Assembly (NCBI GenBank): GCA_032718475.1
Contig: JAUCBJ010004540.1
Span: forward strand, 1-45,686
Direction of reading: 5' to 3'
Length of the DNA stretch: 45,686 nucleotides
DNA from: Nemertoderma westbladi
Taxonomy: Eukaryota; Animalia; Xenacoelomorpha
In this document: in pieces, positions 2 through 42,007 of the stretch
Layout of the letters: each line of letters starts with the position of its first letter
Position numbering within the stretch: the stretch's first letter is position 1
Notes under the pieces: generated by a model
What the model was told of the DNA's origin: nothing
The model's input: the letters and a program-made list of their open reading frames with translations, nothing else
The model's database searches: none
Translations under genes and position numbers: made by a program

Positions 2-2602
2 CAAAGGCCTACTGAATGCTTTCCTACAGGGTATACAATTCCTAAGAACTTGGTTCAGAGCCCTACGAGGTTTATAAAAATAGTAGCGAGTTCGAATTTC
101 GCTCAGAACTCGTTCTCTACCAGCATGATACAGTTTGCTATGAACATCTACAATTATCTTGATCTGTATGTCAAGATTTCTGATGAGTATGGGGAACTTA
201 GTGTCAAAGGATAACGGGGCGTTGGTTAGCCGACCTCCAACACGTATTAACCCATCTATCATGGTACTAGAGAAGCGATCCCTTAAGCGCATCTGTGGAT
301 TTCTTAACAACAGGAAATACTTATCGGAATCCTCATAACATTGTAGAAGTCTCAGCATCTGTTTGTTGGTTTCATCATGCTCCTGGTAACTGATCTTCTC
401 CTTTAGAAACCTGTTGGATACCTTGTATTGGGGAAGATCTTTAACAACATGGACTCGTGCAGATGTTGATGGAGCATCATCACTATGGGTCTTTGTCCCG
501 GAGTAACGATGATGAAAACATCGTTTTAAATAGGTGACAGCTTTACAGAGCCGATTCCAGGAACTGTAGTGACGTATCGCTCTCTGCAAGAGAGGTGAGA
601 GTCCTTGCGAAATATCTGGTATTCCAGATTTCCAATCCTTGTCACGGATTTCCAAGACTTCTTTAGTCGTGGCGGTGGGTTTCTGATCCAAAGCATCCTC
701 TCCGGAAGTAAATAATACAGATAGATCAACCGCAGGTTTAAACAACTTCGATTTACTCGCTCGAGTTTTGGGTTTAACTTTCTCCGCTCCCTTGGCCTGT
801 CTGATCTCTGCTGTTGTGAGATGGGGAGGCCATTCTTCTTCTTCTCTGTAGAGAAAGTCGGGTCCTCCTAACCATTCGGGAGTATTTACCAATTCCTTTG
901 GAGTCGCTCCTCGGGACGCGATGTCTGCTGGGTTAATCGTTCCGGGGCAATGTCTCCATTGGTCCATCGTCGTGCGACTAAGTATGATGGCTACCCTGTT
1001 GGTAACGAAGACGCTGAACTGACAGACTTCATTGGTTATATACTCTAACACGAGTAAAGCGTCGGTCCAATAGACAGTTTTCTCTAATGTATAGTCAATC
1101 TGTTCGGTTACATTCCGGCCGATGGCTGTAGCGTATAGAGCCGCTTTTAACTCCGCTCGAGGAACTTTCAACTTGTTGTTGATTAATGCCTTAGAAGTAA
1201 CCAAGGCGACTTTGATTCCATCCGGAGTTTCCACTCTTAGGTAGGCTACTATACCGATTCCCATATCGCTGGCGTCTCCAAACACATGGAGTTGATAGGA
1301 ATACGTAGGGAGAACATGACCAAAATATGAACGGGAAATTATAAAATCCTCGATGGCTGGTAGAGAATCTTCCCATTTCATCCACTTCTTCAATAATTCT
1401 CCCTTAAGTGGATCGTCCCATGAGTGGTTTTCAAGCCACATTTGTTGTACCAAACTTCGAGCAATCAATATAACTGGGCTAATAAATCCCAATGGATCGA
1501 AATAAGTGCTCAGTATACTTAAGCAAATCCGTTTGGTTCGAACTGGATTATCTCGCTGTTTTAGTTGGAAAAACAGGATATCTCGCTCTGTGTCCCATTT
1601 CAAGCCGAGTGTCTTGGTTTCTGGCAGATCATCTTTGATCAAATCGAGATCTTTCGCTCCTCGATCTTCCGCAGGGATCGACTCCAGAAACTCACGGGAG
1701 TTGCTGGTGAATTTTGTTAATCGAAAACCACCTCTTTTTAAGCACTCTACCGTTCCTTTAGCGACCTCAATGGCTTCCTCAACTGATGGAAGGGACTTCA
1801 GATTGTCGTCCATGTATATGTCTCTCTTGATGTTGTCGATCACTTCCTTAGAGAAGGCCTCTCTGTTGTCCTCTGCAGTAGTACGCACTACCGAACAGGC
1901 GTTGGAAGGGCTTGAGATTATCCCAAAGGCCTGGATGGTCATCCAGTACTCCACCGGTTTCTGGTTGAGGTCTCCTTCGGGCCACCACAGAAATCGTAGA
2001 CTATCTCGATCCCTATCTAACACCTTGACTTGTAAGAACATGCCTTCTATATCGGAGGCGAAAGCAATAGAATATTGTCTCAATCTTAAAAGAATTCCCA
2101 ACAAAGATTGAAGCAAGTTGGGTCCGGGTAACAATTCAGAGTTAAGGGATTGACCCATGTAAAGAGCGGAGCCATCAAACACTACTCTCACTTCGTGTGG
2201 TTTACCGGGTTTAGGAACGTAATGGTGAGTTAAGTAATACGTTCTTTCAGTCACAGGTGTTTCTTCCGGTACCCTCTCCGCGTATCCCTTATTAATAAAT
2301 TTTTCCAGCTGTGTTTGATACATTGCTTTAGCTGAAGAATTAGCCGTAAGGCGTCGATGGAGTTGCGCGATTCTTTTTTCCGCCAAAGGTCTGTTATTGA
2401 TGAACTTCGGTTCTCTCTTGCGAAAAGGTAAACCGACTTCGTACCTTCCTTGATCTTCGAGGAAACGTGTAGTTGTCTCTTGGATCTGCTTGGCCCTTTC
2501 CTCTTCCACCGACAAGGCTTTATCGTAGGAATTGGGCTCTACCGCCTCTTGCGTAAAGAATCGTACGGCATGTTCATCCCGAGTCTTGGCATTGCATGAC
2601 GC
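2..2602 (-). CDS. pol: BEL/Pao pol (RT, RNase H, start of integrase); open frame running off the window start, absent from the ORF track
   Basis: Manual minus-strand translation is stop-free for 867 codons: GRYEVGLPF, RVVFDGS, SDIEGMFLQV, RFLWW, YMDD, KTLGLKW, FDPLG, LHVFGDAS, VPRAEL, YWTD, WRHCPGTINPADIASRG, GLIRVGGRL, and integrase H-x4-H...CIPC zinc finger. Confidence 0.93.
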
Positions 2603-5600
2603 TCAATGACGTCATTTAACTCGTCGTTATAAGCTTCTCGTTCAGATGGATAGAGAAGTTGACATAAGTTCACTTGGTTTTGCCAAGCCTCGTTTTCCTT
2701 AAGGAGATCGATGGTATTCTCCTCATCAAAAAGCTGGTGAACGTCGTCATTATCTGAGGAGTATGGAATTCCCTCAGTTGAGTTGTCTCCCTCACTGGTA
2801 TCATCTTCCCATTCACTCACCTGGCATACGCTCTCTTGCGGTAGTCTTTCTCTGAGTGTTCTACGGGAAGGGCCAGTAAAGTACCAACCTACTCTAGTTC
2901 TTACCGCATAGGTCTGTAGTGGCTGCGGTTGAGCAGGCCGTTTCTCTAATGTCTCCAGCGCCTCATGCGCGTTTTGGCCGATGAGTATTTGCACTCCAGG
3001 ATAATCAGTCTGGAATCGAGGTATGTTAAGATGTTGGATGCTCTCATCCTCGTCCCAATTATAAAGGTCTGCTTGAGTAGTAGCGAAGTTCTTTATAGCC
3101 ACCATTTTCACTGACCTTATGCTGTGTTCTCCTAGTTCGTCCTGGGGGGTGGACAACGCTCCTACATAATAATCAGCTGTTATTGTAGATTTCCAAACTT
3201 GCATAATGCCTGACATGTTGAGCTTAGTTTGGAACTTGGGTTGTCCAGCAAATATATCTTCGGCTAGCTCTTTGTCGATGAATGTTCCTGTACTACCGGA
3301 GTCAAGGAGGGCGTTCACTACATAACTCCTCTCAGGTCCGTGAACCCTTACTTGCACCACAGGAAACTCTCGGATCCCTACATTGGAAGATGGCTCTTTC
3401 CAAGATGGTTGTCGCTCAGAAGTAGTTAGAGTAAAGTCGTTGTCTGTATCTTTTTCATATGTGAGTGCTCGATACACTGCGGTATTTATCATGTAACAGG
3501 ATTCGTTTTCGTCGGAGAACTCGTCTGTATAGAATCCTTCCATCTCAGATTGATCAGTGTCGTTCACATCACTGAATTGGACATGTAACTCGGAATCACT
3601 CACCTGATTCGGACTATTTCGATCGAATTCAGCGTGCAACAAGATATGATGTTTCGCACCACACTTTGCACACCTTATGTCAGAGAAACAGGTTCGCCGT
3701 TGGTGTCCTTGTCTGAGGCAATTATAACATAACCGCTTATCCCACATGACTTCGCGTCTCTCTGTTAATGATTTCTTTAGAAATTCATCACACCTATTCA
3801 AATGGTGGGTCCCGTCGCACAGCGCACATTTCGGTTTGATGTTACTTACCTTATTTTGAGTCACATTGTGTACACTTGCCTTTTCTTCGGGTTTTCTCAC
3901 CTGAATTCTCTTGGGAGACGTGGGAGGAGTTTTTCTTACCTGTTCCCTCCTGTCATTTGTTCGAGACTTGAATTTACTTACCTGATCTTTAGGCATTTTA
4001 TTCACGTAATAAGATCTATCCGTGTCCTTCCCGCTATCTTCTCCTTGAGAAGTCTGGCTTTCGCCGTCGTCTGTATAACATACTGGTGTTACCTTTCTCC
4101 TAGAGACGGGTTTTTCACTTACCTTGTTTTCCGGTGTCTTCTCCCTAGACAGTTTCAGGAGCTGTAATTTCACTTCTCCATCTAGGAATGACATGAGATC
4201 AGCCATGGTAGGGTCTCGTCGTTGTTGTTCCATCATATATAACACTTTCTTATCCCAGCGTGTACCTACTCCACCTTTCGGTAAAGTAGAAGCCACTGCT
4301 CTAATAACCATAGTGTTCTGATACTCATGAGACTTACCTAGCCAATCTAATTGTCTGCAGATCTCCTGGATCTCATCGGAAAACTCGATAATTCCACTAC
4401 TAATAAACTTTCGGGGCGCTACTAACTTTGCATATAAGTACCCAGCGATATTATTCCTATTACCATACCTGATGTTTAGTGTATCCCAAACTTGTCTTAA
4501 TCCGTCTGGATGTCCAATAAACTTTAACGCCATTAACTTGGGAGATCCTTCCAAGCACTCGATGAGGTATCTAAGTTTTTCTCCATTAGATAGTACAGAG
4601 TTCTGTATGTTATCTTTGTAATATTCATTAAAAGGTAACCATTTCATCTCATCTCCATTGAACTTGACGATCTCTCCCACCTTTACCGCTTGCCGGGCTT
4701 CGGTTCTAGCCATTTGACGCGTAAAACTTTCTTGGGCCATCGTGTTATTTAATATCGAATTATCGGTATATAAATTTCTCGGATTATGATCAGTTCTATA
4801 GGGAATGTCATTATCAACAGGTCTATAATTACCCTTAATAGGGTTCACTATAGGAGTTTCTACTTCGCTAGCAGTATATATGCGTGTAGGCTCCACACCT
4901 TGCGCATGAGATACTTCAGACCTAACAGGTTGACACATTGTTACAGAGGGTGGTGGTATACCTCTTTGAGTATTTACTAATTTATCGCGCTCTAGCGCGA
5001 TACTTTGCTGCACTTCTTGCAACTCTAGCCTACTTTCCCTTACTGTGCCCTTGAACTGCTGGACAGTCTCCTGCATCTGTCCGAGCAGGATATCCATCCC
5101 CCGCCGTCCCTCGTCCACCCATTCGACCGCCGAAGCGGGAGTCGCCAACGTTGTAGCGGGCGGACGATGGACAACGGGCGACAAATTATGAATATTTCGC
5201 TCGGGGTCCAGGACCTGAACTGTCTCTGGGGGAGTTCTACGGGGCACAGGTAGCTTAGTGCTATGCAGAGGGAATTTAGAGATAACTTCAGGGAGCACAG
5301 GTGTGTCTATCACCGAAGGGGTGATTTCAAGAACAGGCCTAATTATTTCAGGCTCATCTACTATAGTAGGGAGTCTTTCTATTTTAATTATTTGGTCTGT
5401 GGGCTCTGTACTACCTAAGTTGGTGTTATTTAGTTGCCTTCTAACAGCTGGAGGCAAATCAGGCAATTTCTGACGGTGGAATGTTCTTTTATGTCTACTT
5501 AGACGAGATCTATTTCCTTTGCCTTCAGTATCGGTGGTATCGCCTTCCTCAGATGATGTATATCCCTGTCTTTTGGGAGTAGATCGATTCATCATCTGCA

Positions 5601-7053
5601 TATTACTAGCTGTTAACTGTTTATTTATGCAGTCTTGATTCTCCTGAATGTTTTCCAATTCTAATTGAGTGGTTTCTTCAGTCGCTCTCCATTCGGCTTC
5701 TGCCACTGCCTCCGCCGCTTTTGCCTCTGCCGCTGCCTCTGCTGCTGCCACTTTTCTTTCTGCTTCTGCAGCTGCCACTGCCGCTGCTACTGTCGCTTTT
5801 GCCTCTGCCGCTGCCTCTGCTGCTGCCGCTTTTCTTTCTGCTTCTGCAGCTGCCACTGCTGCTGCTACTGCCGCTGCCTTTCGGTCTTCTATACGTTTTT
5901 TCTTTACTTGTTCTTCTTGGACTCGTGTCAGGCGGAGTTGTTCATCAAATTTAGCCTGATTCGCAGCCCTCATTTCCACATCGATGGCATCCAACACAAG
6001 CTTGGTTCCTTCGCTATTAGGGCTAAGTCCATCTAACCTTCTTCTCAATTCGTCATCACCTAAAAAACGTTGATAGTCCGACAGATAGATGTCAATGGCA
6101 TCTCTCTTATGCGGCTTCTCTGCCGTCGCTTCACTTTCCACTTGGGAAAAAGTAGCGTCTGTTGATTCTCCATGGGTTGATCGCTCCTCCAGCTGAGCTT
6201 TCCACTGAGCTGTTCCTTGAACCTGGAGACTCACCCGTTGAAACCAAGTCTTTACGGCAACTTGCAACGACGTGTCTTGTTTTCGTTTAGAAGCCTCCTC
6301 AAAGGCTGATAAGATTAGCCTGATTCGTAGAATTCTTTCTCTAACTTGATAAAGCAGCAATCCCTGCTCTTGAGGTCCTTGAGGTTGTTGAAACAGTTGT
6401 TCTTTTAATCGCTCTATAGAGCTGAAGAATCCCTGTGCGTATCCAGCTGCGGACCTCTTCCACACAGCTGGATCGATGGTTTCCTTGGCTACTCCCATCC
6501 GGTGTATGTCTTCCCAGGCAGCTTCTGATAAATCAAACGGGAGTCCGGGTCCGGGGAAGTTCCATTGCGACTCGACCATGGACTTCAGTTCTTCTCTTGT
6601 GTATCCAGCATAACTATCTCTAGTTGAACGCTGGCTTCTCGCCCAATCGATCTGGTGTTCTTCCACAGCGATCAATAACCTAGTGAGTACGGCTGCAGGA
6701 AGGATGAGAAGGGGATCCGAATAAACCACATCCGTCATCCTTGCTCCGCGCTCGGGTGTCAGCTCTACAGTATCCTCACTACTGGAGCTGTTGGGCCGTT
6801 GAGAAGTAAGTTCTTGTATCGCGGGTTGTTGCTGTTCCGCTGCTTCTTGGTCCCGTTTGACCTGAGCTCGAGTGCCTATGATAGACCTACGATGTTGGAC
6901 CAGCCTAGGTTCTTTTATTACTACTGGAGGGATGACTTTCCTCACAGTGGGAGGTGAACTGAACCTACGACCAGACGGTTCTACGTCTCTATCTGAGTCG
7001 CAGATAGTTACATCTAATAAACTGTCTGACAGGTTCTGCTTAGAATCAGACAT
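2539..7053 (-). CDS. gag: BEL/Pao gag + aspartic protease, 1504 aa, with a very long N-terminal extension
   Basis: Capsid-like block from IVKFNGDEMKWLPF through LIECLEG and LNIRYG; BEL triple knuckle CALCDGTHHLNRC / CYNCLRQGHQRRTC / CAKCGAKHHILLH; protease ALLDSGS, ILIG, AVRTRVGW. Confidence 0.93.
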   Translation of the reverse strand: MSDSKQNLSDSLLDVTICDSDRDVEPSGRRFSSPPTVRKVIPPVVIKEPRLVQHRRSIIGTRAQVKRDQEAAEQQQPAIQELTSQRPNSSSSEDTVELTPERGARMTDVVYSDPLLILPAAVLTRLLIAVEEHQIDWARSQRSTRDSYAGYTREELKSMVESQWNFPGPGLPFDLSEAAWEDIHRMGVAKETIDPAVWKRSAAGYAQGFFSSIERLKEQLFQQPQGPQEQGLLLYQVRERILRIRLILSAFEEASKRKQDTSLQVAVKTWFQRVSLQVQGTAQWKAQLEERSTHGESTDATFSQVESEATAEKPHKRDAIDIYLSDYQRFLGDDELRRRLDGLSPNSEGTKLVLDAIDVEMRAANQAKFDEQLRLTRVQEEQVKKKRIEDRKAAAVAAAVAAAEAERKAAAAEAAAEAKATVAAAVAAAEAERKVAAAEAAAEAKAAEAVAEAEWRATEETTQLELENIQENQDCINKQLTASNMQMMNRSTPKRQGYTSSEEGDTTDTEGKGNRSRLSRHKRTFHRQKLPDLPPAVRRQLNNTNLGSTEPTDQIIKIERLPTIVDEPEIIRPVLEITPSVIDTPVLPEVISKFPLHSTKLPVPRRTPPETVQVLDPERNIHNLSPVVHRPPATTLATPASAVEWVDEGRRGMDILLGQMQETVQQFKGTVRESRLELQEVQQSIALERDKLVNTQRGIPPPSVTMCQPVRSEVSHAQGVEPTRIYTASEVETPIVNPIKGNYRPVDNDIPYRTDHNPRNLYTDNSILNNTMAQESFTRQMARTEARQAVKVGEIVKFNGDEMKWLPFNEYYKDNIQNSVLSNGEKLRYLIECLEGSPKLMALKFIGHPDGLRQVWDTLNIRYGNRNNIAGYLYAKLVAPRKFISSGIIEFSDEIQEICRQLDWLGKSHEYQNTMVIRAVASTLPKGGVGTRWDKKVLYMMEQQRRDPTMADLMSFLDGEVKLQLLKLSREKTPENKVSEKPVSRRKVTPVCYTDDGESQTSQGEDSGKDTDRSYYVNKMPKDQVSKFKSRTNDRREQVRKTPPTSPKRIQVRKPEEKASVHNVTQNKVSNIKPKCALCDGTHHLNRCDEFLKKSLTERREVMWDKRLCYNCLRQGHQRRTCFSDIRCAKCGAKHHILLHAEFDRNSPNQVSDSELHVQFSDVNDTDQSEMEGFYTDEFSDENESCYMINTAVYRALTYEKDTDNDFTLTTSERQPSWKEPSSNVGIREFPVVQVRVHGPERSYVVNALLDSGSTGTFIDKELAEDIFAGQPKFQTKLNMSGIMQVWKSTITADYYVGALSTPQDELGEHSIRSVKMVAIKNFATTQADLYNWDEDESIQHLNIPRFQTDYPGVQILIGQNAHEALETLEKRPAQPQPLQTYAVRTRVGWYFTGPSRRTLRERLPQESVCQVSEWEDDTSEGDNSTEGIPYSSDNDDVHQLFDEENTIDLLKENEAWQNQVNLCQLLYPSEREAYNDELNDVIERHAMPRLGMNMPYDSLRKRR

Positions 7054-7874
7054 GTCTATGTATACCGTTGAATGTCTACTGCTGTATTACAGTCTGAGCA
7101 AGTCTAGTAACTCAGTATGAACTGCTAGCCTAGTAATTAATTACCGATACTGCTACTCAGTGTAGCGTGATATATATATAATATATTAGAATACCGGTAT
7201 ACTTATGGTATATATAACTATATAAGTATTATTACAGACTAGGTTTATCACAGAATACCGGTATAATTTTAGCACCAATATATATAAATATATAATAGGC
7301 CTATCGGAATAGCGGTATACAGCTTACAGTTTGTAGTATATATAATTCTGGACTAGAATTAATTACAAGCACCGGTATAATTTCAGCCTAAATTTATAGA
7401 AATAAGATAATAGGCCTATCGTAAATACCGGTATATCAATTATTTTAATAATTGAATTTCTGAATTTTAGGGTTACTTGGTTACTTTAACTTACTTTATT
7501 GCCGTTAGTTAAGCAGTAGTCCAACTGATATTGAGACCTAATTGTTATATGGTAGGCCTACTACTTATAAATCGTTAGATTTGATTTATAATATATATAT
7601 ACCCGTTTTAATGGGTTTAGTCAATGTTTGAAATAAATGTTATTATTTCTGGGGAGTAATCACTACACAAAGCGGTGCGCTTTCAGTGAAGTGTTACTTA
7701 TAGGACACTAAAACAAATAATGCTAATTTACCTAAGTTACTTAATACTACAAATTACGTACAATTCGGGTTGAGATTACAATCTCTAAATAAACACAAAA
7801 ATTTACAAAAACACAAAATACGAATTTTTAGGGTAATTTTACAAGAATGAATTGAATAATAAATATTACGCTAC

Positions 7875-8430
7875 GCGTACAAACTACTCAAACAAAATGC
7901 AGACCGAACACTGACAGACTACTATCAAGCCTAAACAAACTACGGTATATGCAGACTCCGAAATAATTAGGTAGTATGCGTTCTAACCCAGTAGTACGAC
8001 TTATTCTTTAGTTGGGGGTTTACCTTACAGCATTCGCTGCCCCTACTTCCTAACCGTTCTTTATCGGACAAGTGATCTACACACGCTGCAATCCGTTCAG
8101 ACCTAGTAACAGCCAGACAACTATCCAGCCTACAAATTATCTAAATAAAATTATACGCTACCCGTACAGACTTACACAAACAAAGTACAGTCTAAACGAT
8201 GGCAGACTACTCTCAAGCCTAAATAAACTACAGGACATGCAGACTCCGAAATGATTAGGGAGTATGCGTTCTAACCCAGTAGTACGACTTATTCTTTAGT
8301 TGGGGGTTTACCTTACAGCATTCGCTGCCCCTACTTCCTAACCGTACTTAATCGGACAGGTGATCTACACACACTGCAATCCGTTCGGACCTAACAGCAA
8401 TCAGACAACAGCTCAGCCTACAAATTGTCT
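7875..8430. repeat. Two ~288 bp tandem repeats in the 5' leader of BEL copy A
   Basis: gcagactccg at 7951 and 8239 (period 288) with long identical cores; homologous pair in copy D. Confidence 0.9.
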
Positions 8431-8607
8431 GCACAATCTGATCAGGCTTACACGTCTTCTGTTCAATACTGGCCTACAAACAAATTAAACTTGACAGAAA
8501 TAAGTAAAATCTCAATAAAAAACCAGGGCGGCCGTTCCCTGATTAAGTATTAAGACCTACCGGTATACAACAATCAAATCGAATAATACTAATGTACTTA
8601 TACGGGA

Positions 8608-8732
8608 AGTACCGGTTGGGACAGTTAGGCCTACGGACCTACAGAAGTACCGGTTCTGGCAGTTGGACCTACGGGCCTACAGCAGTACCGGTTCTTGCAG
8701 TTGGGCCTACTGACCTACAGAAGTACCGGTTC
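8608..8732. repeat. 38 bp tandem repeat (~3.3 units) in the BEL leader
   Basis: agtaccggtt recurs at 8608, 8646, 8684 and 8722. Confidence 0.9.
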
Positions 8733-8786
8733 AAGTTTACCGGTTGACCGGTATTTTCAACTTTATTGCTTACTGCAATAAAGAAG

Positions 8787-8800
8787 CATATATCCTTTAA
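8787..8800 (-). promoter_or_regulatory. Non-tRNA primer-binding site of BEL copy A (self-priming candidate)
   Basis: Sense ttaaaggatatatg directly follows the LTR end ...cgcgaaca and is exactly complementary to LTR positions 9563-9576. Confidence 0.75.
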
Positions 8801-10016
8801 TGTTCGCGCTTTCAGACCTTTGGCAGTTTAACCCGCCAAATTAAGATGTCTTCTAGATATTAAATCGCTTTTTAGTCTATGACAAGTATTTGATTCACTA
8901 CACTAGTCGAAACCAATCTGTGCGCGATCATTCACCCGCTGGATATTCCCGGGAGATTGGGTTCGACGGCTTAATTTTTATTGCTATGTAAGCCTAATGT
9001 ATTATTCGACTGACAGTATTATATAATCTCTGACAATATTATTCACCTTCGGGAATATTAACAGTTCCTTTAGGACGTGGCGCTTTATCTATATAAACAG
9101 AGTTATGACTTAAACTACTCACAACGATATGGCTCAATTATAATTCACATATATGGCGCATTCTTTAGGAATTGCTTCTTTAACAGACTCACTCATACAC
9201 AATGCTGCACAATACTGCACACTAATCTGCCAATCTTCACTGATTTTAGTCACATATAAAAGGAACACAGACTGACTCATGTAGGGTCTATCAAATAACA
9301 TTAGATTCACTTCAAACCACTTTAACATAAGTCACAATCGTTATTGGTAACCTTTCTCTCTTACCTTCGGTATATCAAGAATATTGGGTTTTCGGGGTTA
9401 TTTCTCGTTATTCCAATATAATAATTCATCAACCAATATAATGAATAACCGACAACAAATAGCAGTATACAGTATTGATTGAGCAGGTAATTTTTAGCAG
9501 TTTCAGCAGTTATTAAAAGCCGTGTGTCAGCAGTGATTACGAAATTGCAGTGATTCCATGAATTAAAGGATATATGTCCTTATAATTAAGCCTACTAGTG
9601 TAAGACTAAAAACTGAAAACACGGAGGTGCCAAAAGCCGGTTCTTAGGCTCTGGGCAAAAACATAACACTGAACTACTGAGTTTCTGTATACACCTCCAA
9701 CACAGAGACAACAAACGCTCTGATTGGTCAACCTGAACAACGAGAGAACAAAGAAACAAAGAAACGTCGACGTGGCAATATCAGCTGCTAGCCGTCGTCA
9801 TGGTAGCGACACTGTTTTCAAGAGTATCGAGCTTTTACGTCACGGAATTACGGATTATGTCCTCTAAAGTACAAATACAGAAGAAATAGCTTTTATGTCC
9901 GCTAAAACACCAGTACAGCAAGGACACGGCCTTTTTATGCCTGGTAAACCAACTACAGAGTATTTTACGGGAAAAATAAGGAAAAATAACCGGACAATTC
10001 AGCAAAAGCTTTTACA
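8801..10016 (-). repeat. 5' LTR of BEL copy A (1216 bp, TGT...ACA)
   Basis: Sense starts TGTAAAAGCTT and ends GAAAGCGCGAACA; the same termini delimit 1213 bp in the sibling copy (40782-41994). Confidence 0.8.
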
Positions 10017-10183
10017 CATTGGCCAGCCCACCTGTTCTCCCTATATTTATATTAATTGCACCATTATTAATTTCGCCCTGATTCATTACATTATTACTAA
10101 TGATATTATTTTAATTAAATTCTCCAGGGTTATTTAACATATTATTGTTACCTAAATTATTATTTAAATTATTTTGCTCAGAA

Positions 10184-10270
10184 TTAGGGTTATTATTTAG
10201 ATTATTTTGCACATTTAAATTAGGGTTATTATTTATATTATTTTGCACATTTAAATTAGGGTTATTGTTA
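10184..10270. repeat. 36 bp AT-rich tandem repeat (~2.5 units)
   Basis: ttagggttatt at 10184, 10220 and 10256. Confidence 0.8.
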
Positions 10271-10437
10271 CCGGGTAAAATATTATTTCCTGCAAGAAAG
10301 GTTTGATTAGGGTTGTCTATTACGGTACTATTAATATTACTCCCTCTAGCATATTACTATTATTACCCCCCCCCCCCCCCCCGCCCGTACGGTCACACCT
10401 GTCCTGGGTCTGTCGTCCAGTACCTGTAAGTGGGGTA

Positions 10438-11562
10438 TTAACAAAGGTTCACCTCTCTTGCCTCCCGCTCCTTGCACTCGTTCACCTCTCTTGTCTCCCG
10501 CTCCTTTCGTTCATTCTCTACTCTCGCCTCCCGCTCATTGCGCTCGTTTTCTACTCTCGCCTCCCGCTCCTCGCGCTCTTTGCACTCACTCATCTCTCTC
10601 TCCTCCCGCTCCATATAGTTTCTCGCCACCCTCTCGGCTCTCTCTTTACACTCTCTCGCTAATTCTCTCTCCCTCTCTAATAGTGCAGTTCCCTCATCTA
10701 ACTGCCTCTCCAGTTCCTTTTGATCCAGCGCCACAATGTCTAGTTGACACGCCAGATCTATCTCTAACACCGTTCTTGCTTTCGTGGAGGATGTAGTGGA
10801 CTTATCGGTTGCGACGGACTCCCGTCGCCTCTCTGTCCTACTAATTTTCCCCTGTTTACTGGGGTTCTTACTAACCGACGACACCGAATCCTCAGGGTTA
10901 ACCTCGGATTTGCCATCGTGCGGGTCCGCCCATCCCACTAACTTAATTCCCCTGGCATCCACTAGGTAAGGCCCTATGTACACTACATCTGGCTCCATTA
11001 CCTCGGACCGCCACAATTCAAACAGTTCTGTGGCGACCCCCCTCGCTCTCTCACTCGCCAGTTCTCCCTGTCCAAAACGGACTAAGTAACGGAAATGTTT
11101 ATTCGACTCACCTAGCCTCTGGTATAGTTTAGGCTGGTCTACCTTTCTCCCCTCCTTAGCCTCTTTCAGTAGTTTCTTCGTGGCATTGTATGCCCGTCAT
11201 AGGCGATCACTCGTCCCGATGTCCTCCTCGTTGACTCTACCTTCCCTCCTCGTCCGGCGTCGTACCGACGGCCCCACCGCCACCGTTCTGGTGGGCCATC
11301 CGTCGCCCTCCGCCTGTGGTTGGCTGGCGACTTCGGTACTCCAACCGCCGTCGTTGTCGCGCGTCGACTCGGTGTTGTCTTTCCCTCCTCGTTGTTGTCG
11401 GCCGCCCTCCGCTCGGGCATTCGGATCATCCCTCGTTGGCGAATCCGTGGTGGCAGGCCAGTACCGTCTCGTCGCGGCCTCTCGGATTGTTTGGTTGGTG
11501 TCATCCGGGGTCCGCGGTGGCGTTCTTTCTCCCTCTGATTCTCGGGGCGTTTGTTCACTCAT
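10438..11562 (-). pseudogene. Disrupted gag N-terminal region of copy B
   Basis: ORF pieces 11197..11562 and 10438..11016, separated by stops or frameshifts; no capsid or knuckle domain retained. Confidence 0.5.
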
Positions 11563-11610
11563 CTTTGTTTGTTGCGGTCACAGTCCATTGTAAGCTGGAT
11601 AGTTTTTAAC

Positions 11611-12137
11611 TGTGACTGGATCTGAGATCCCGACCGGGTAAGATTTGTACGCATCACGTAACTGCTGGTCTGCTGGGCTAGTGTCCTTTTGGCTGAAGGT
11701 CGTTGGGGAAAAATAACAGAGTTTGTGTTTCTCGATGTTAATGTTCCAATGATAATAGCACAGAATGTATGACAGTATATGATTGAAATTGCAATACAGA
11801 ATTACAACAGCAGTGTGTAGAATGACTGTTAAAAACTATAACCGGTCTGCAACTCTGTGATTAATGAACTGACCGGTAAATCAGTAATCAGGATAACTAT
11901 ATGATTGATACACATAGATATTGGTTTCACCTCTACTCTACTTGGCCTTCTGTACCCAATGGATGCTTTCCTATCTTTCCCCACGTGCTCCCCTGCCTGC
12001 TATTGGCTTATATACTAATTGTCACTTTGGCACTCCCTGTGAGTGTTACCCCCTGCCGCTAGCCTTGACTAGCTGCGTTCCCCCTGTGAGGTGGTTTGAC
12101 CTCTAACCTCTCTCTGTGGCTTTAGGGCCTGTGTCAA
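11611..12137 (-). repeat. Putative 5' LTR of copy B (~527 bp)
   Basis: Plus-strand ends tgtgac...gtgtcaa (imperfect terminal inverted repeat); minus-strand TATATAA at ~12008-12014; the adjacent 12-mer (11599-11610) is complementary to 11828-11839. Confidence 0.6.
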
Positions 12138-12194
12138 CCCCCCCCCCCCCCCCCCCCCCGAGTTGGTTATGGGGCGAGATTCTTATTGGTAATC

Positions 12195-12300
12195 TCATAT
12201 CGCCAACTATATTGGTAAAATGCCACTGGTCCCATTTTCAGGTGGATAAAGCAAGGGAATCGAATCCGCTTACACACCGACACGGTTTTCTTAACCCGTT
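12195..12300 (-). mobile_element. Degenerate tRNA-derived SINE remnant
   Basis: Minus strand has B-box-like ggattcgattcc followed by tccacctgaaaatgggacc, resembling a SINE central domain. Confidence 0.3.
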
Positions 12301-12314
12301 GTAGTGATTCTGGT

Positions 12315-14648
12315 GTGGTACCTCAGTTTCTAGCCTTCAAGGTACCTCCATCTCACCCTTTTGCAGAACCTGATGCTATTCGGGCCTTTCAGCTGCGGTT
12401 GCTAAACAAAACCATAGCTAGGAGGGTGAATGAGCTGATTGCTGCAGAGGGTCGTGTGGAGAGTACCAAGCATCACCTTGCCACTCGACTGGGAGATGCT
12501 CAGCTGATTGAGGAGGCCGTCTGCCAGGCTAACACCTGGTGCGACGGTAAACTCGACCAGTGGAGAGCTGACCAGGACGAGAAGTTTAGGTGGTGGGCCG
12601 GATGCCAAGGGACGCCATTACTTAATGTCCAAGGCACGGTGCGGTGTGAGGATGGGATTGTTCTACCTGAGACGGTTGAGACTGTGCTCAGACTTGGGGC
12701 CAAGAATCCGGTCAAAACCAAGTTTGACACCACTCTCTTCTACTCCCAGGTAGATTATTTCACCCGCGCGACCGATGCTGACAAAGTAAGTATGTCACAC
12801 CATTACCAGAATTATGCCAGGTTATTGCGCTTACAGTGGCAGTCTGATGCTGTCGCTACCACAGCCCATTACCTGAAGCAGCAGGGCCTGATTGCTGTGC
12901 CGTTTGACAAGGGTAATGGCTATTGTATTATGAGGAAGGAGTCGTATCTGGCCAAGGCTGATACACTCATCGCAGACCCGGCTAAGTTTGGTCCACCTCC
13001 CGGTCATCCTATTGCTGTTAAGGGCTGTACCGTCGCAGGGCCGAGGTTATACGGAACGAGGTCACCAGTATTGTAGGTAAGGAGAGTAAGGAACTCCTAG
13101 CGAAGTTACTTCCGCGCTAAGATACTACTCCCCCGAGGCTGTATGACCTCGCCAAGGTCCACAAGGCTGGTGTCCCTCTCCGCCCAATAACTTCAATGCC
13201 CGGCAGCATCTTCCACGCTGTCGCTGAGTACCTCAGGGACATGTTGCAGGTGCTGCCAGAGGGTAGGATTGGTACTAACAGCGCCGGGGCTGCCGATCGT
13301 CTCGCTGAGCTGGATGTAGAACCCACGGACCGCCTCTACTCCCTGGACGTAGTTAGTTTATTCACTAACGTTCCACTCAAGGAGGCGGTGCAGCTTGCTG
13401 CTGATCTACTGTACGAGCAACATCCTGACCAGCCTATCAACAAGGACCAATTTATTCGTCTTATGTTGGTTGCTACACAGGATGTTGTATTCCTGGATCA
13501 CCGTGGTAACTACCGTTGTCAGAGGGATGGTGTCGCCATGGGCTCCCCTTTGGGTCCCATACTCGCCAACATCTTTCTGTCACAGTTCGATGAGCAGATT
13601 GCGGCGGGTACCAAGCTTAGCGATAGGTACGTTGATGACGTGTTTAGCGTTGGTAGTAACGACCCCACTGAGAAGCTGAGAGAGGTCAATGCCCTCCACC
13701 CCAATCTTAAGTTTACACTTGAGTTGGAGGAACAGGGCCGCTTGCTTTTCCTTGATTTGGTTGTGTCCCGTACTGACCACGCGCTTGCGACGGCATGGTA
13801 CCGCAAGCCTACAGATACTGGGCTTGTTCTTAATGCTACTGCGTGTGCCCCTGAGGCATACAAACGGGGGGTAGTTCGTGGAATGTTTCATCGCATTTTC
13901 AATAAGGATGTAAGGGCGGGGATGGCTCCCAGCTCCATTCTGCAATTGGCGAAGCTAACACCATTCTTAGCAATAACCAATATACAAATGCGATGATTCA
14001 ACGCGAGCTTACCGCCGTCCGTGCCGCTAGGGGGCGTCCTGGCAATTGTAGTGAGAGCGAGGTGACTGCGGTTGCACCCACTGAGGTCATTGACCTGGTG
14101 GATCCAGCACCCGTAGATAATCCCAGGCCTATCATCTGAAGTTTGAGTACCGCGGTCGGGCTACCAAACTTTTCGTTCGTAGGCTACGTGGTCTAGTACC
14201 GAGATCTTGCGCACGGCCAGTGCGGTTTGTTTACACAACTGCCAAACTGCGCCAATCACTGCCATCATTGAAACATCGGGTTCCCGATATTCTGGCTTCT
14301 AACGTCGTGTATTCATTTGCTTGTCCCTCTTGTAAGGGGGAATATGTTGGACATACCATCCAACACTTATTTGAACGCGTTAGACAGCATCAGGACGGGT
14401 CGGCCAATGATGGTAGTGAACAAGGCAAGACAGTTCACAACCATATCATGACGCACTGCGGGGAGCCCAACACACGTTGGTTGACTGACTGGCGAGAGTT
14501 GTTCAAACACTTCAAGGTTATTGCACGGCACCCTTTGCGTCCTGTCCTGCAAAAACTAGAAATGTTTTATATACACACTCGCCAGCCAGCTATTAACAAG
14601 CAGAAACGTGATTGGCGCAAGTTTGAGGTGCTGCTTCCCAGTGGTTAG
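12315..14648 (+). pseudogene. Penelope RT-GIY-YIG polyprotein split into three ORF pieces
   Basis: ORFs 12315..13076, 13196..13996 and 14220..14648 are consecutive parts of one protein; the frameshifts are visible against copy 2. Confidence 0.9.
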
Positions 14649-15323: not shown

Positions 15324-17937
15324 GCCGAGGAGATAGGGTTGCAAACGAGGCTGAGTAGGATGGCAGTAACTACTATCGCGAGCAAGGATGAGGTCCTGGA
15401 GATGAGAACGGGACGGTGCGAGATATCAGCAATAGCACCTGGATGTGATTATGGGGCGACCATCGACCCCATTCAAATAATAGAATCAATTAATATAAAC
15501 GCCAGGCGGCCCACCAGGATCGAGGTCGAGCAATACTGGTTCCTGGACGATATCGATTCCTCAATACCCGAAGTGGACGTCCCGAAGGTATCCATCATAG
15601 TCGGTATGGACTGTCCGACGGCCCACGAGAGAGTACGGACTATATTCGGAGAAAATAAACAGAGGGATCTGATGGCGATTCTTACGCCGTTCGGATGGAT
15701 GCTTAGCGGCCCAATTAAAACCAAGATTCCATTCGGGGTGTCGGAGACATCAGGGTGCATGTTTGCAGGCACAATGAGGGAGATGGAGGATGAAGGAGCA
15801 GAGGAGCAACTTAAGAGGCTGCTGCGGCAGGACTTCGAAGGATTAGAGGAGGCCTGGGTCGGAACCTCGGTAGAAGACAAACAAGCGATAGAGAGCGTAA
15901 AGAATTCTATGAATTGCAGAGGGGGACGGTACACCATAGGGATTGTGTGGAAACAACCAAAGCTACCGTTACCAGATAACAAAGGGATGGTACTCACGAG
16001 GCTCCGCAAACTGAAGCAGACGCTCAGACGGAGCCCCGAGAAGGACGAGTATATCCACAAAACAATTAGGAAATATGTTGAAAAGGGATGGGCCGTGGAG
16101 TTACCGGTCGACGAGCCAAACACGGACAGGACCTACTATTTGCCACGGCACGTGGCCTTGGATCCGAGGAAGGGTAAACTGTGGATGGTGGTCAACGCGT
16201 CGGCCAAAACGAATGGCAAAAGCCTAAATGACTATCTGCTGGAGGGCCCCAACATCTACAACTCGGGGATAGAGGTCCTGTTGCAATTCAGAAATGGAAG
16301 GCATGCCTTCACGTGCGACATTGAAGGCATGTTCAACCAAGTCCGTATGACAGAAGAAGACAGCGATAGTCAGCGCTTCCTATGGTACAACGGCGACGAA
16401 AAACCGTCTGAGATACCGATGTATAAAATGGCGGTGCAAAACATGGGGGCCAAGTCATCCTCATTCACAACAACTACGGCTGTAAGAGATACGGTAGAGG
16501 GCAAGGAAGGAGAGTATAGTGCAAAGGCGAGCGACATGATTCGACTTTCTATGTAGATGACGGGATGGGATCTGGAAACATGGTTGAAGAAATACTGGAG
16601 ATAAGGCGCGAGGTTCGCGACATCCTAAAAGGATCTGGGTTCAACCTTACTAAGTTCCAGTCCAGCTCTGAGGAATTTATGAAGGCCATAGAAGACAAAC
16701 GACCAGAGTCAACCAATGGACAATCCCACAACGGCAAAGGGACAGGTTTTGGTGAACAAGAGAGTGGAGTCTCAGCAAAAGGCACTAGGGATCGTGTGGA
16801 ACCGGGAGACGGACGAGTTGGAGTATCAACTAACCCAAGAGGGCGCAGAGATCCACACTAAGCGGGTTATGTGTCGTACATAGCAAGGATATACGATCCC
16901 CTAGGCCTAGCATCCCCATTGTTAGTCACGGGGAAGCAAATATTAAAGAAAGTATATAAGTTAAAGGATGAGTGGGATGCGGAGGTCCCGGAAGAAATAA
17001 GTAGACAGTGGAGTAAGTGGACGGGGGGTCTAGAGGAAATGGGGATGTACAGCATGCCATGCGTGTATTTCCCGTACGGAAACATGACGGACCTGGATCT
17101 GCATATGTTTTCCGATGCATCATTGAAAGCGTATGGAGCGGCACTTCATTTGGTACAGCGACGGGGGGCTCATATGCCCATACTTGCATTTAGTAAAGCG
17201 AAGTCGACGCCACCAGATTCAACATCAGTGCCGAAACTCGAGCTGACAGCTGCGAGGTTAGGAGTAAGGGCGACAGCTTACTTGATGGACACTATACCCA
17301 ACATAGTGGAGACACACTACTGGACGGACTCCATGGTAGTGTTAGGGTGGCTACATAATGAGAAGACAAGGTACCCTATATTCGTCGCAAACAGGATAGA
17401 TGAGATAAGGGTGACGACTGATCTAGAAAGGTGGCATTACTGCCCTACCGATGACAATTCAGCAGATCTGTTATTGAGGGGCGTTGGACGCCGCACTTTC
17501 TCGAAGAAGGAAGAGGAAGTAGTAACAGAAGAGGAGGGAGAGGATTCAGAAGGGGAAGAGATATACAGCCAGTTAGCAGGGAGATCAAGGAGGTGCCACC
17601 GAAATCGAAGGAACTATGCGATAATCCGTCGGATAGGTTGCTCAGTTACAGCTCCAGCTGGTTCAAGACTAAGAAGTTGGTAGCATATTTGTGGGCCTAT
17701 GGGGATTTCCTCAGGGGAGTTGGCAAGGATACCAAAAGGACACCAACCATCGATCTGGAAGGAGCGGCTAAAGCCGTAATACGATATGAACAAAGAAAGG
17801 GGTATGCCGACGAAGTGGACAGAGTCAGCAAGCAACAACACCTTCATCGAGACAGCGAGCTCAACACGCTGTCCTCGCAGTTGAACGACGGCGGGATACT
17901 GGTGATGAATTCCAGAGTGGTGAACAACAACAGCTTA
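15324..17937 (+). pseudogene. pol: BEL/Pao pol fragment (copy C: partial protease, RT, RNase H), frameshifted; a different family from copy A
   Basis: AILTPFGW, GRYTIGIVWK, YYLPRH, SLNDYLLEGP, CDIEGMFNQV, RFLW, FYVDD across a frameshift at ~16548, IYDPLG, LHMFSDAS, VPKLEL, YWTDS, WHYCPTDDNSAD. Confidence 0.92.
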
Positions 17938-18850: not shown

Positions 18851-19647
18851 CAGGGACGGATTAAGGGGGGGGCAACAGGGGCAGCTGCAGGGGGCCCGTA
18901 AGTTGGAAGGGGCCCGCAAGTTGGGAGAAATTTACCGAACATTATCTCACTGATAAAACAACCTCATTTATTTATTAATTTCTGGCTGTTCAATAAATAT
19001 TTAGAGTATATCTCACATATAGCCTCACCATTCAGAGCACTGTGTCCCATAGAATGTTTAAAGTGTTTTAAAAAAATATTTTAAGTGTAATGTAATGCTT
19101 AAAGGAAAACGTTAGCAAAAAAACAAAATTAACCAAAAAAAAAAAATGTTAATAATAGTAAACTATTACTGTATTACAATTAACATTTAATTTACCTTTC
19201 AATTAATATTATCTGAAATCATTCACGAGTTCAGTAGGTTAGGAAATTGCTATTTTTAAGTAATTTTGTGTCTAATTTATTGATATACCAGTATATTATT
19301 CGTTCCTAAATATAGAATTGATGTCTTTTGGATGGTGTAATTTTAGGAAAAAATTAGTATTATTTAAATAATCAAGGACTATTATTCGATAAAAAAAAGT
19401 AAGTGGAAATCACCGCTTTTTTAACAGATATTCAATTTAGCGAAATTCAACTATGTTTTTTTTTTTTTTTATTCAACTGTTACGTTTTTATATCGAATAT
19501 ATTGTTTTATTTGAAAAAAATATTACCAGCGTTACTTATTTGTACCAACGGGGACCAAAATTTTTTGCAATTGGTTTTCGTCGGGGAGGGGGGGGGGTAG
19601 GGGCCCGTAAGTTGCGACTGCCGGGGGCCCGAAAATCCATAATCCGT
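18851..19647. mobile_element. hAT-type non-autonomous element (MITE) with a damaged right end
   Basis: Left TIR cagggacggatta; right end keeps only taatccgt; repeated ggggcccg subterminal motifs; 8-bp target gtgaaagg at 18843-18850, reappearing as (c)tgaaagg at 19684-19691. Confidence 0.8.
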
Positions 19648-19650
19648 AAG

Positions 19651-19717
19651 CCGACACTGAACATGTCGTCAACATACCTTTCACTGAAAGGTATGTTGAC
19701 GACGTGTTCAGTGTTGG
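19651..19717. repeat. 33 bp-arm inverted repeat with a 1-nt centre
   Basis: ccgacactgaacatgtcgtcaacatacctttca-c-tgaaaggtatgttgacgacgtgttcagtgttgg (2 mismatches). Confidence 0.95.
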
Positions 19718-24988: not shown

Positions 24989-25400
24989 GGAATCTACGGT
25001 GTAAGTAAGTATTCTACCTCCACGGGTGTTGTTCCTATTAGCGAAAATGAATTCGGACGAATATAAGATTGAGAGATATGGCGCAGCGGAGAGCGTGTAG
25101 ACTTAGGTATTGTACTATCTAGTTTAGCGTGTAGGGTATAGTATAGCATTAGTTTAGTATAGTAGCGAAGTGTTCATTTAGTATGTTAGCTATTTCAGTA
25201 GGGTCCTTCGTAGCTCCCTCGTTTGGCCGCTTGCGGCATGAATGCTTTTCCCTCTACCCGGTTGTACAGCCTCGTAGATATTCGCTGACCTTATACTCTC
25301 CCCCTGTCATCAGGTGCCACGGTTCACTTAACTCACTGCGCGCATTTCCCACTGACACCTGCGGGGATTTATTCCCCCCCCCCCCCCCCCCCCTCTCGTG

Positions 25401-27564
25401 ACTGCTTTCAGAAGGATGGTGTCGCCATGGGTTCCCCATTGGGTCCCATACTCGCCAACATCTTTCTGTCACAGTTTGACGAGCAGATCACAGTGGGTAC
25501 CGAGATTAGTGAAAGGCAGGGACGGATTAAGGGGGGGGCAACAGGGGCAGCTGCAGGGGGCCCGTAAGTTGGAAGGGGCCCGCAAGTTGGGAGAAATTTA
25601 CCGAACATTATCTCACTGATAAAACAACCTCATTTATTTATTAATTTCTGGCTGTTCAATAAATATTTAGAGTATATCTCACATATAGCCTCACCATTCA
25701 GAGCACTGTGTCCCATAGAATGTTTAAAGTGTTTTAAAAAAATATTTTAAGTGTAATGTAATGCTTAAAGGAAAACGTTAGCAAAAAAACAAAATTAACC
25801 AAAAAAAAAAAATGTTAATAATAGTAAACTATTACTGTATTACAATTAACATTTAATTTACCTTTCAATTAATATTATCTGAAATCATTCACGAGTTCAG
25901 TAGGTTAGGAAATTGCTATTTTTAAGTAATTTTGTGTCTAATTTATTGATATACCAGTATATTATTCGTTCCTAAATATAGAATTGATGTCTTTTGGATG
26001 GTGTAATTTTAGGAAAAAATTAGTATTATTTAAATAATCAAGGACTATTATTCGATAAAAAAAAGTAAGCGGAAATCACCGCTTTTTTAACAGATATTCA
26101 ATTTAGCGAAATTCAACTATGTTTTTTTTTTTTTTTATTCAACTGTTACGTTTTTATATCGAATATATTGTTTTATTTGAAAAAAATATTACCAGCGTTA
26201 CTTATTTGTACCAACGGGGACCAAAATTTTTTGCAATTGGTTTTCGTCGGGGAGGGGGGGGGGGGGTAGGGGCCCGTAAGTTGCGACTGCCGGGGGCCCG
26301 AAAATCCATAATCCGTAAGCCGACACTGAACACGTCGTCAACATACCTTTCACTGAAAGGTATGTTGACGACGTGTTCAGTGTTGGTAACAACGACCCCA
26401 CTGAGAAGTTGAGAGAGGTCAATGCCCTCCACCCCAATCTTAGGTTTACACTTGAGTTGGAGGAACAGGGCCACTTGCCTTTCCTTGATTTGGTTGTGTC
26501 CCGTACTGACCACGCGCTTGCAACGGCATGGTACCGCATGCCTACAGATACCGGGCTCGTTCTTAATGCCACTGCATGTGCCCCGGAGTCATATAAACGG
26601 GGGGTAGTTCGTGGAATGTTTCATCGCATATTTAACGTCAGTAAGGGCGGGCGGGGATGGCTCTCAGCTCAATACTGCAATTGGGGAAGCTAATATTATT
26701 CTTAGCAATAACCAATATACAAATGCGATGATTCAGCGTGAGCTTACTGCCGTCCGTGCCGCTAGGGGGCGTCCTGGCAATAGTAGTGAGAGTGAGGTAA
26801 CTGCGGTTACACCCTCCGAGGTCATTGACCAGGTGGAGCCGAAACCGTCGGAAAATCCCTGGCCCATTATCTGTAAGTTTGAGTACCGCGGTCGGGCCAC
26901 CGAACTTTTTGTTCGTAGGTTGCGTGGTATAGTACGTTGTTTATTCTTTATCTTGTCCAGCTTGTAAGGGGGAATATGTTGGACATACCATCCAGCACTT
27001 GTTTGAACGTGTTAGACAGCATCAAGACGGGTCGGCCAATGATGGTAGTGAACAAGGCAAGACAGTTCACAACCATATCATGACACACTGCGGCGAGCCC
27101 AATACACAGTGGTTGACGGACTGGCGTGAGTTCTTCAAGCATTTCAAAGTAATTGCACGGCACCCATTGCGGCCTGTCCTGCAAAAACTTGAAATGTTTT
27201 ATATACGCACGCGTCAGCTCGCCATTAACAAACAGAAATGTGATTGGCGCAAGTTTGATGTGCTGCTTCCCAGTGGTTAGACAGATACACTTCTACCTTG
27301 TTTCACTTTACCTTTCTTTCTCCCTTGGGAACTTCTATCTATTGTATCCTTTCTAGCACTAGCTACTTGAGAAAGCCCCCATTGGGGCGAAACCTACTGA
27401 TCAGCTGACAGTTGTCAGCTGAGCACTGACTGCATGCAACGTCTAAAGGTCAGTTGCTTTTTTACTGTTTTATTTGTACTGCATACCTACTGGGAAGGTT
27501 TTTACTTCACTGCTTGACAATTAAATAAAAGTACCACTATATTGCATTAACTCAAGCTTTTTAA
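25401..27564 (+). mobile_element. Penelope-like copy 3 (duplicated 3' half of copy 2, including MITE 25517-26316 and palindrome 26320-26386)
   Basis: Identical ORF pieces at 26373..26693, 26611..26967 and 26999..27280. Confidence 0.93.
27361..27458 (+). ncRNA. Variant hammerhead ribozyme motif, duplicated copy
   Basis: Identical to 20692-20789. Confidence 0.7.
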
Positions 27565-31190: not shown

Positions 31191-31689
31191 GGAATCTACG
31201 GTGTAAGTAAGTATTCTACCTCCACGGGTGTTGTTCCTATTAGCGAAAATGAATTCGGACGAATATAAGATTGAGAGATATGGCGCAGCGGAGAGCGTGT
31301 AGACTTAGGTATTGTACTATCTAGTTTAGCGTGTAGGGTATAGTATAGCATTAGTTTAGTATAGTAGCGAAGTGTTCATTTAGTATGTTAGCTATTTCAG
31401 TAGGGTCCTTCGTAGCTCCCTCGTTTGGCCGCTTGCGGCATGAATGCTTTTCCCTCTACCCGGTTGTACAGCCTCGTAGATATTCGCTGACCTTATACTC
31501 TCCCCCTGTCATCAGGTGCCACGGTTCACTTAACTCACTGCGCGCATTTCCCACTGACACCTGCGGGGATTTATTCCCCCCCCCCCCCCCCCTCTCGTGA
31601 CTTACTAGGTCTTTAGGTCTTTAAAATACCTGAGTGTTTAAAGCTCATCTATCCCATCATAGTAGACATGTACTGTACAACAAGTGTCA

Positions 31690-36300: not shown

Positions 36301-36683
36301 ATTATAAATATCGTCAGCCTGCGTTTAAGAAATATATTTAAATACAAAACAGGACGAACGCAAAGAGGCTTATAATGAAAACGAGTACTGCGTTTATTAT
36401 ATTCCTATAAACCACCTGGCTTTGCATATTTAACGTGCGATTGGAAATAAGTTCGTGCTACCCTTCCGTGGGTGGTAGATGTCCCGGTTATGTATTGGTG
36501 GTTGGGAAGGTTGGGGGGGGGGGGGGGGGGATTAAAAGGGGTGAACACGTACTGTCCCCCTTTCTTTGATTGATTGGTGGTGTGGGTAAATTTCTCAAAA
36601 CCTGATTTTGTGATACAGTCGCTCAATTTTAATTTGTATCTAATAACTGGGCCTCGTGCTGCGCGAAGGCCCCACGAACGTGT
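33378..36683 (+). mobile_element. Head-to-tail dimer of a Helentron/DINE-like non-autonomous element (units 33490-35120 and 35121-36680), preceded by a duplicated 56 bp head
   Basis: 56 bp x2 at 33378 and 33434; (tgtcgttc)10 and (tgtcgttc)5; core ...ataactc...ccaaacttggtacacatg; terminal hairpin gggcctcgtgctgcgcgaaggccc; gtggggc/gccccac inverted pair. The repeat is certain, the class is inferred. Confidence 0.65.
33490..33574. repeat. (TGTCGTTC)n microsatellite, 10.6 units; second tract at 35121-35165
   Basis: Read directly from the sequence. Confidence 0.97.
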
Positions 36684-39107: not shown

Positions 39108-39295
39108 TGTTTTTGGAAAAGCAAATAATTTTTTTAACCTTTTAGCTTCTTTTGTCTTTGGTTGATCACTTAATAGGAGGTTCGATGCGCAATTGGGCCC
39201 AATTTAATTTCCCAATTCCAATTTGATGAATTAGATAAACTTGCTGTGAATCTTACTTTTGATGCTAATAAAATTGTTGAAACTTGTTTTGATGA

Positions 39296-41994: not shown

Positions 41995-42007
41995 GTAACA
42001 GTTTATA
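41995..42007 (+). promoter_or_regulatory. Non-tRNA primer-binding site of BEL copy D (self-priming candidate)
   Basis: gtaacagtttata is the reverse complement of tataaactgttac at 41233-41245 in its own LTR. Confidence 0.75.

Follow-up and report, generated by a model that had tools for sequence, protein, structure and literature searches.

A retrotransposon nest and the fragment within it

The window analysed here, the whole 45,686-nt (45.7-kb) stretch of Nemertoderma westbladi DNA, is filled by a nest of retrotransposons. Copy A, on the minus strand, extends from beyond the left edge of the window to about 9469 (window 2-9469), and copy D, on the plus strand, runs from 41310 to the window's end at 45686. 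Pfam comparison identified BEL/Pao domains in copy A, namely a DUF1759 gag, Peptidase_A17, and an integrase zinc finger; along about 4 kb, copies A and D share 73-77% identity, the domains themselves being seen in copy A only. Between these two, on the minus strand, sits the copy with the candidate self-primer. Read from 12274 to 10438, it comprises a repeat with TGT...ACA ends (12274..11611), a 12-nt site (11610..11599), a 36-nt leader, and an ORF. The repeat is present as a single copy in the whole window, where neither a second LTR nor a target-site duplication was found. Internal sequence amounts to about 1.1 kb before the element breaks off near 10438-10366, and pol is absent from 10438-12274. 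A search for tRNA genes returned none within the window.

The downstream ORF (10438..11562, minus strand) opens with an ATG at 11562, closes with a TAA at 10440-10438, and spans 374 codons; a single TGA interrupts its frame at 11199-11197, and its tail is a Glu/Arg-rich repeat. The ORF matched no Pfam family at E-values up to 5, no homologue in word-index protein searches in either the longer or the near mode, and none of 1.84 billion representatives in a full HMMER scan, and it returned no usable ESM Atlas match; a blastp comparison with the gag ORF of copy A gave nothing below E = 3. Neither Gag DUF1759 nor Pao-type pol domains were detected in 10438-11577, a region that holds only about 1.1 kb of internal sequence. 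A pattern scan of metagenomes retrieved five loci, which share a 22-nt pattern only. Among viral contigs, the pattern combining the LTR end and the putative primer-binding site (PBS) had no matches, while the ORF and the pol of copy A had three and six pattern matches, respectively, none of which was confirmed. Since no second LTR, pol, or ORF homologue was found, this copy cannot be assigned to a family. Just past the ORF stop and a G-run, about three tandem units of about 36 nt (10140-10300, minus strand) would encode an Asn-rich peptide, and a GT at about 10452 with an AG at about 10300 would allow an intron.

Other parts of the window are also repeat-rich. Positions 9900-9993 belong to an extremely abundant short repeat, with a summed contig depth of about 450,000 in sequencing run X1, 10-100 times that of neighbouring repeats. 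A further Peptidase_A17 match lies at 16862-17683 (Pfam). Between 18735 and 31602, a 6.67-kb unit occurs twice in tandem (96-98% identical) and includes internal tandem repeats of 462-467 bp. A 14-nt inverted pair with 548-nt spacing recurs in both of these units (20792-20805/21340-21353 and 27461-27474/28009-28022), and a perfect inverted pair at 26323-26383 forms a 30-nt hairpin with a 1-nt loop, reduced to 19 nt in the sister copy at 19665-19703. Amid the repeats, an open 607-codon ORF (37380-39203, minus strand) with RhoGEF, PH, FYVE, and PH domains (FGD-like; Pfam) is apparently an intronless host gene. Finally, nine homopolymers of C or G, each 10-23 nt long and most of them within repeated elements, are scattered along the window (C runs at 10366-10382, 12138-12159, 25374-25393, and 31576-31592; G runs at 19588-19597, 26254-26266, 34951-34964, 36513-36530, and 39347-39369). 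Their lengths vary between copies of one repeat, and a read contig from another sample also has such a run; they may be real tracts or artefacts of the sequencing chemistry.

Ends of the putative LTR and variation among its copies

The limits of the repeat were assessed by aligning to the region contigs from four public DNA runs of the same organism (X1, X2, X3, and X5, of which X1 and X3 represent one sample). On the 331-nt stretch 11545-11875 alone, 343, 225, 235, and 7 contig pieces were placed from X1, X2, X3, and X5, respectively, covering all identity classes from at least 99% to below 90%; the LTR family is very abundant. Six contigs in X1 and seven in X3 have loose ends before 11611, matching rightwards only, and the letters to the left of 11611 in these contigs agree at a level of only 0.47-0.49, so that the left flanks are unrelated. 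An LTR end in 3' LTRs and solo LTRs has just this appearance. The sequence-only reading had set this boundary partly from the complementary match discussed below, and the loose-ended contigs now support it independently. Three of the listed contigs bridge 11611 with at least 31 letters on each side and represent at least two distinct diverged copies (X1 and X3 being the same sample), and one X2 contig covers the putative PBS plus 11 nt. Because these bridging contigs derive from other, diverged copies, the junction of LTR, site, and leader is a property of the family and not specific to this locus.

The upstream end is a best guess. Summed contig depth stays high through the poly-C tract to bin 12156-12249 and then drops about 30-fold, with bin 12250-12343 below the depth predicted for a sharp end at 12274; the poly-C tract was masked in this alignment, and no contig was followed across it. 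Past 12274, two X5 contigs continue with differing sequence, and four contigs of a neighbouring plus-strand repeat start exactly at 12275. An upstream LTR end at 12274 is thus more likely than one at 12137, and the putative 5' LTR, with its well-supported 3' end, is probably 11611-12274 on the minus strand, i.e. 664 bp. The length of about 527 bp first proposed for it is accordingly in doubt, high-copy DNA continuing to about 12250-12274. The run of 22 G on the minus strand (12138..12159) would then lie inside U3. As an alternative, the LTR could start at 12136 with the G-run as a polypurine tract directly before it, which would imply a tandem or recombinant arrangement. With TG...CA ends and unrelated flanks at both limits (11611 and 12274), this dispersed repeat has a generic feature of LTR retrotransposons; the other generic feature, paired LTRs with a target-site duplication, was not found in the window, which holds one copy of the repeat. 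The LTR had been described as unlike those of copies A and D, and blastn of 10300-12300 against the LTR regions of A and D likewise returned no similarity.

Exactly at the LTR end, from 12275 onwards on the plus strand, begins another element, one of moderate copy number that carries an RVT_1 ORF (13121-13996). Other copies of this element extend upstream with sequence that is absent from 9900-12274, and it was probably interrupted by the LTR element.

Variation among copies was read from the best 40 of 63 differences in 11545-11875, tallied by position, with arm and site not linked within individual copies. Among these 40, majority differences fall at 11586, 11587, 11617, and 11827, just outside both arms of the complementary pair, and none falls in 11588-11616, which spans the whole putative PBS. 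The LTR arm has single-contig differences only within the same set (A>G at 11831, plus indels of one letter at that position and at 11828). The first 7 nt of this arm lie in a conserved, high-depth block (11833 onwards) and the last 5 nt in a variable block (11773-11832) with about 8-fold lower depth (1272 vs. 9678 in X1). The letters of a few contigs differ there, seen as loose ends at 11816, 11832, and 11833 (X2, X3, and X5). Given this low-depth, variable block at its last 5 nt, the exact arm may be absent from most LTRs of the wider family.

A complementary pair at the LTR-leader junction

The putative PBS, ATAGTTTTTAAC (11599-11610), directly abuts the LTR end, where TGTGAC begins at 11611, and is the exact reverse complement of GTTAAAAACTAT (11828-11839), a candidate self-primer arm at LTR positions 436-447, 229 nt before the LTR end. 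The pairs on either side (11598/11840 and 11611/11827) are mismatched, which confirms the pairing and its limits as initially described. In a repeat search, the match lengthens to 15 nt with one mismatch (11599-11613/11825-11839), and the loop between the 12-nt arms measures 217 nt. Of 20,000 dinucleotide-preserving shuffles of the LTR (taken as 12274..11611), 2 gave a perfect complement to the site, 12 nt or longer and anchored at offset 0, and 10 did so when offsets 0-5 were allowed. Without anchoring, perfect inverted pairs that are 12 nt or longer and no more than 700 nt apart number 27 in the window; leaving aside repeats and homopolymers, about a dozen remain. Since unanchored pairs of this length are not rare, it is the position of the match that makes it significant; in that position, it is far beyond chance. 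No tRNA-type PBS, that is, a TGG within 0-5 bp of the LTR end, is present: the first 23 nt after the LTR are free of TGG, the first occurrence being at offset 23 (11587), and an 18-nt PBS of the tRNA-Arg or tRNA-Gly type was likewise not found near the LTR end. The site agrees with a published in-silico definition of putative self-primers, which, in the portion of the source available, asks for complementarity to the 5' LTR over 10 bp or more, beginning 0-5 bp past that LTR (PMC6317226); here, 12 bp start at offset 0.

The same layout is found in copies A and D. In copy D, the LTR (41310-42213, a span inferred from the A-D alignment and the TGT...ACA ends) is followed by TTA and then by a 12-nt site (42217-42228) that pairs perfectly with LTR segment 41757-41768, while copy A has the same site with an 11-nt perfect match plus a G-U pair (8999-9009/8579-8589). 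In both, the 11-12-nt site starts 3 nt after ...AAGTACA and its partner segment lies about 450 nt upstream in the LTR; among 5,000 shuffles of each, a match as long as the observed one came up 5 times for D and 18 times for A. All three elements place the primer arm 435-460 nt into the LTR, with a primer that ends in AC and is followed by A, and have LTRs of the form TGTA...GT(C)ACA. The candidate differs from A and D in having no sequence similarity to them, in the offset of its site (0 instead of 3), and in the start of its ORF 37 nt after the site instead of 1.5-2.3 kb. There is a hint, not proof, that the candidate's family uses BEL/Pao-type enzymes. According to the excerpted ICTV profile, Belpaoviridae are primed by host tRNA-Arg or tRNA-Gly (PMC8742986), and the literature searched yielded no paper reporting self-priming in BEL/Pao elements.

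The TATATAA noted earlier about 170 nt upstream of the arm is indeed present on the minus strand (12014..12008); its first T and the base that opens the arm are 175 nt apart, and the motif is followed by CCAAT (12006..12002). Closer to the arm, and as motif matches only, lie a further CCAAT (11924..11920), TCAGTT (11872..11867, 33 nt upstream), and ATTAAT (11865..11860, 26 nt upstream). With CCAAT at -85, TCAGTT at -33, and ATTAAT at -26, the spacing is that of an ordinary core promoter and would agree with a start at the arm, as in Tf1; TATATAA at -175 would, by motif alone, favour an internal primer. A primer deep inside R, which the sequence-only reading had proposed as a mechanistic variant, is unsupported, the single TATATAA being its only basis; such an internal primer is possible, without positive support. 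In the standard retroviral scheme, the long 5' tail of such a primer would be copied into plus-strand strong-stop DNA, hindering the second strand transfer. The most economical reading places the transcript start at the arm or a few tens of nucleotides before it, not 146 nt upstream. We also considered an LTR intron bringing the arm near the cap, or an arm located at the poly(A) site; motif inspection of the LTR found neither AATAAA nor ATTAAA.

RNA folding predictions depend strongly on the ends chosen for the RNA. The primer-PBS duplex is AT-rich and weak (-10.1 kcal/mol), yet is present in both the minimum free energy (MFE) and centroid structures of a 256-nt R-U5 RNA, and its predicted mean pair probability reaches 0.96-0.97 in RNAs that start at the arm, or 6 or 39 nt before it, and end at the PBS. 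This probability drops to at most 0.54 once 29 nt downstream of the PBS are included, due to a competing local 8-bp hairpin (11577..11616, minus strand, with 11616..11609 pairing with 11584..11577 and the PBS in its loop), which replaces the duplex in the MFE structure with at least 29 nt of downstream sequence. Forcing the duplex then costs 0.8 kcal/mol above the MFE in a 280-nt RNA, and its probability is 0.00 when the RNA starts about 30 nt after TATATAA. A U5 hairpin (11618..11630, minus strand; 5-bp stem, 3-nt loop) is predicted 7 nt before the LTR end in MFE and centroid folds. Among the best 40 of 63 differences, other copies vary in its loop (11623 and 11624) and just outside its stem (11617), with no difference in the stem itself, and the majority letter at 11617 gives the hairpin a sixth pair, with 11631. 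When the RNA was checked for a three-duplex "pretzel", the central duplex and the U5 hairpin were predicted in short RNAs only, the competing hairpin winning otherwise, and the overall fold is ordinary (z = -1.0).

Candidate self-priming, its alternatives, and known systems

We interpret the fragment, with about even confidence, as a truncated and decayed copy of an unclassified, very abundant LTR retrotransposon family, on the minus strand, that carries a Tf1-like self-primer and its PBS. The 12-nt site after the LTR is likely a PBS for the element's own RNA and not for a tRNA, although an unusual RNA may serve as primer instead. Under the Tf1 model, the RNA would fold back so that LTR segment 11839..11828 pairs with 11610..11599, RNase H cleavage would follow the last C of this segment, and reverse transcriptase would extend the cut end through U5 and the downstream part of R. 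A more particular version, in which an element within BEL/Pao, or one borrowing its enzymes, self-primes with a 12-nt piece of the leader located tens to about 146 nt from the cap, seems improbable to us; it would require either a second cut or tolerance of the 5' tail, and would represent a real variant of the Tf1 mechanism.

The match could instead be a product of chance or a historical leftover, with another primer in use, for example an RNA binding downstream at the TGG of 11587, which is followed by ACTGTGACC. This is unlikely. In its favour, perfect 12-nt inverted pairs are fairly common in the window, the match itself is AT-rich and weak, and TGTAAGC at 12274 recurs in inverted form as GCTTACA, which ends at 11589, a 7-nt terminal inverted repeat that, with the A and TGG after it, gives the appearance of a conventional LTR end and PBS. 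An LTR end at 11589 with a TGG site, a candidate prompted by this inverted repeat, was nevertheless rejected, since the loose ends put the boundary at 11611, and the TGG site would need a tRNA whose acceptor stem begins with CUGUGAC, an atypical tRNA. The chance of an anchored match is moreover only 1e-4 to 5e-4, and A and D have the same layout. The pairing could also form a genuine structure in RNA or DNA that serves a purpose different from priming, either as a junction hairpin marking the start in the manner of the GalEa Conserved Hairpin Site, or by closing R-U5 into a domain that might act in packaging, dimerisation, or strand transfer. The 8-bp hairpin whose stem starts within the final 6 nt of the LTR, with the PBS in its loop, would suit such a role, as would the precedent of GalEa elements, described in the accessible part of PMC5445492 as having a hairpin directly after the LTR and no PBS. 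We nonetheless judge a purely structural role rather improbable, as the 12-nt site follows the LTR with no intervening base, and minus-strand synthesis has to initiate exactly there.

More radical readings question the LTR itself. If 11611-12274 were another abundant repeat, or a composite joined at the poly-C and often located beside an ORF-bearing repeat, the concept of a PBS would not apply. Consistent with this are the lack of a second copy in 45.7 kb, an ORF without retroelement signature, the masked poly-C tract across which no contig was followed, and a summed depth of the ORF region that exceeds that of the LTR. Against it stand the TGT...ACA ends, the shared orientation of TATA box and ORF, the heterogeneous flanks at both ends, a junction common to diverged copies, and the resemblance of the ends to the BEL/Pao LTRs of A and D, which together leave this reading a slim chance. 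As for a 241-bp miniature DNA transposon spanning 11599-11839, its 15-nt arms with one mismatch would serve as terminal inverted repeats, and a TA dinucleotide is possible at both outer ends. The contig data contradict any such DNA transposon with terminal inverted repeats, and we find it scarcely credible: the repeat ends at 11611, a position within the supposed left arm, and not at that arm's outer end at 11599, depth stays high over 11839/11840, and contigs run across this position (one listed contig with at least 31 letters on each side, two more with 22).

On the preferred reading of a self-primed element, the fragment represents a third, unrelated LTR family with a self-primer signature, beside two BEL/Pao copies that also bear it. 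This suggests that tRNA-independent priming in this animal genome is not a quirk of one family. The fragment adds weight to that picture while by itself settling neither the family nor the proposed variant, and the candidate is a probable further member of the self-primed kind. To our knowledge, experimental proof of self-priming is limited to the Tf1-type elements of fission yeast, and predictions extend it to the Tf1/sushi group and to two plant lineages.

Compared with these systems, the candidate shares with Tf1 and Tf2 of Schizosaccharomyces pombe, with Tj1, and with Tf1/sushi chromoviruses a short AT-rich site next to the 5' LTR that pairs with the same LTR instead of with a tRNA, and a U5 hairpin, predicted in the present case, adjoining the PBS. 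In Tf1, as described in the sections available of the sources, the mRNA pairs with the PBS through its first 11 nt, the RNase H cut falls between nucleotides 11 and 12, and a three-duplex structure is required (PMC7175516, PMC10085805); Tj1 of S. japonicus is read in the same way in the available part of PMC4600332. The pairing here differs in involving 12 nt, with a 217-nt loop between the arms, and the host here is an animal and the copy lacks pol, hence has no chromovirus pol. Among plants, the Tcn1 (Ty3/gypsy) and TAR (Ty1/copia, including Houba and Osr-1) lineages are given as predicted self-primers in the excerpt of PMC6317226, on the same purely in-silico criterion as applied here. These lineages, according to that excerpt, were classified by reverse transcriptase, RNase H, and integrase in many full-length elements, whereas the present case is a single truncated copy. 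The fungal GalEa elements (Ty1/copia), which in the accessible text of PMC5445492 have a hairpin directly after the LTR and no PBS, resemble the candidate in lacking a tRNA-type PBS and in an inverted repeat that starts at the LTR-leader junction. According to the same text, both arms of the GalEa hairpin lie after the LTR, with no complement in it, whereas the main pairing of the candidate is with the LTR itself.
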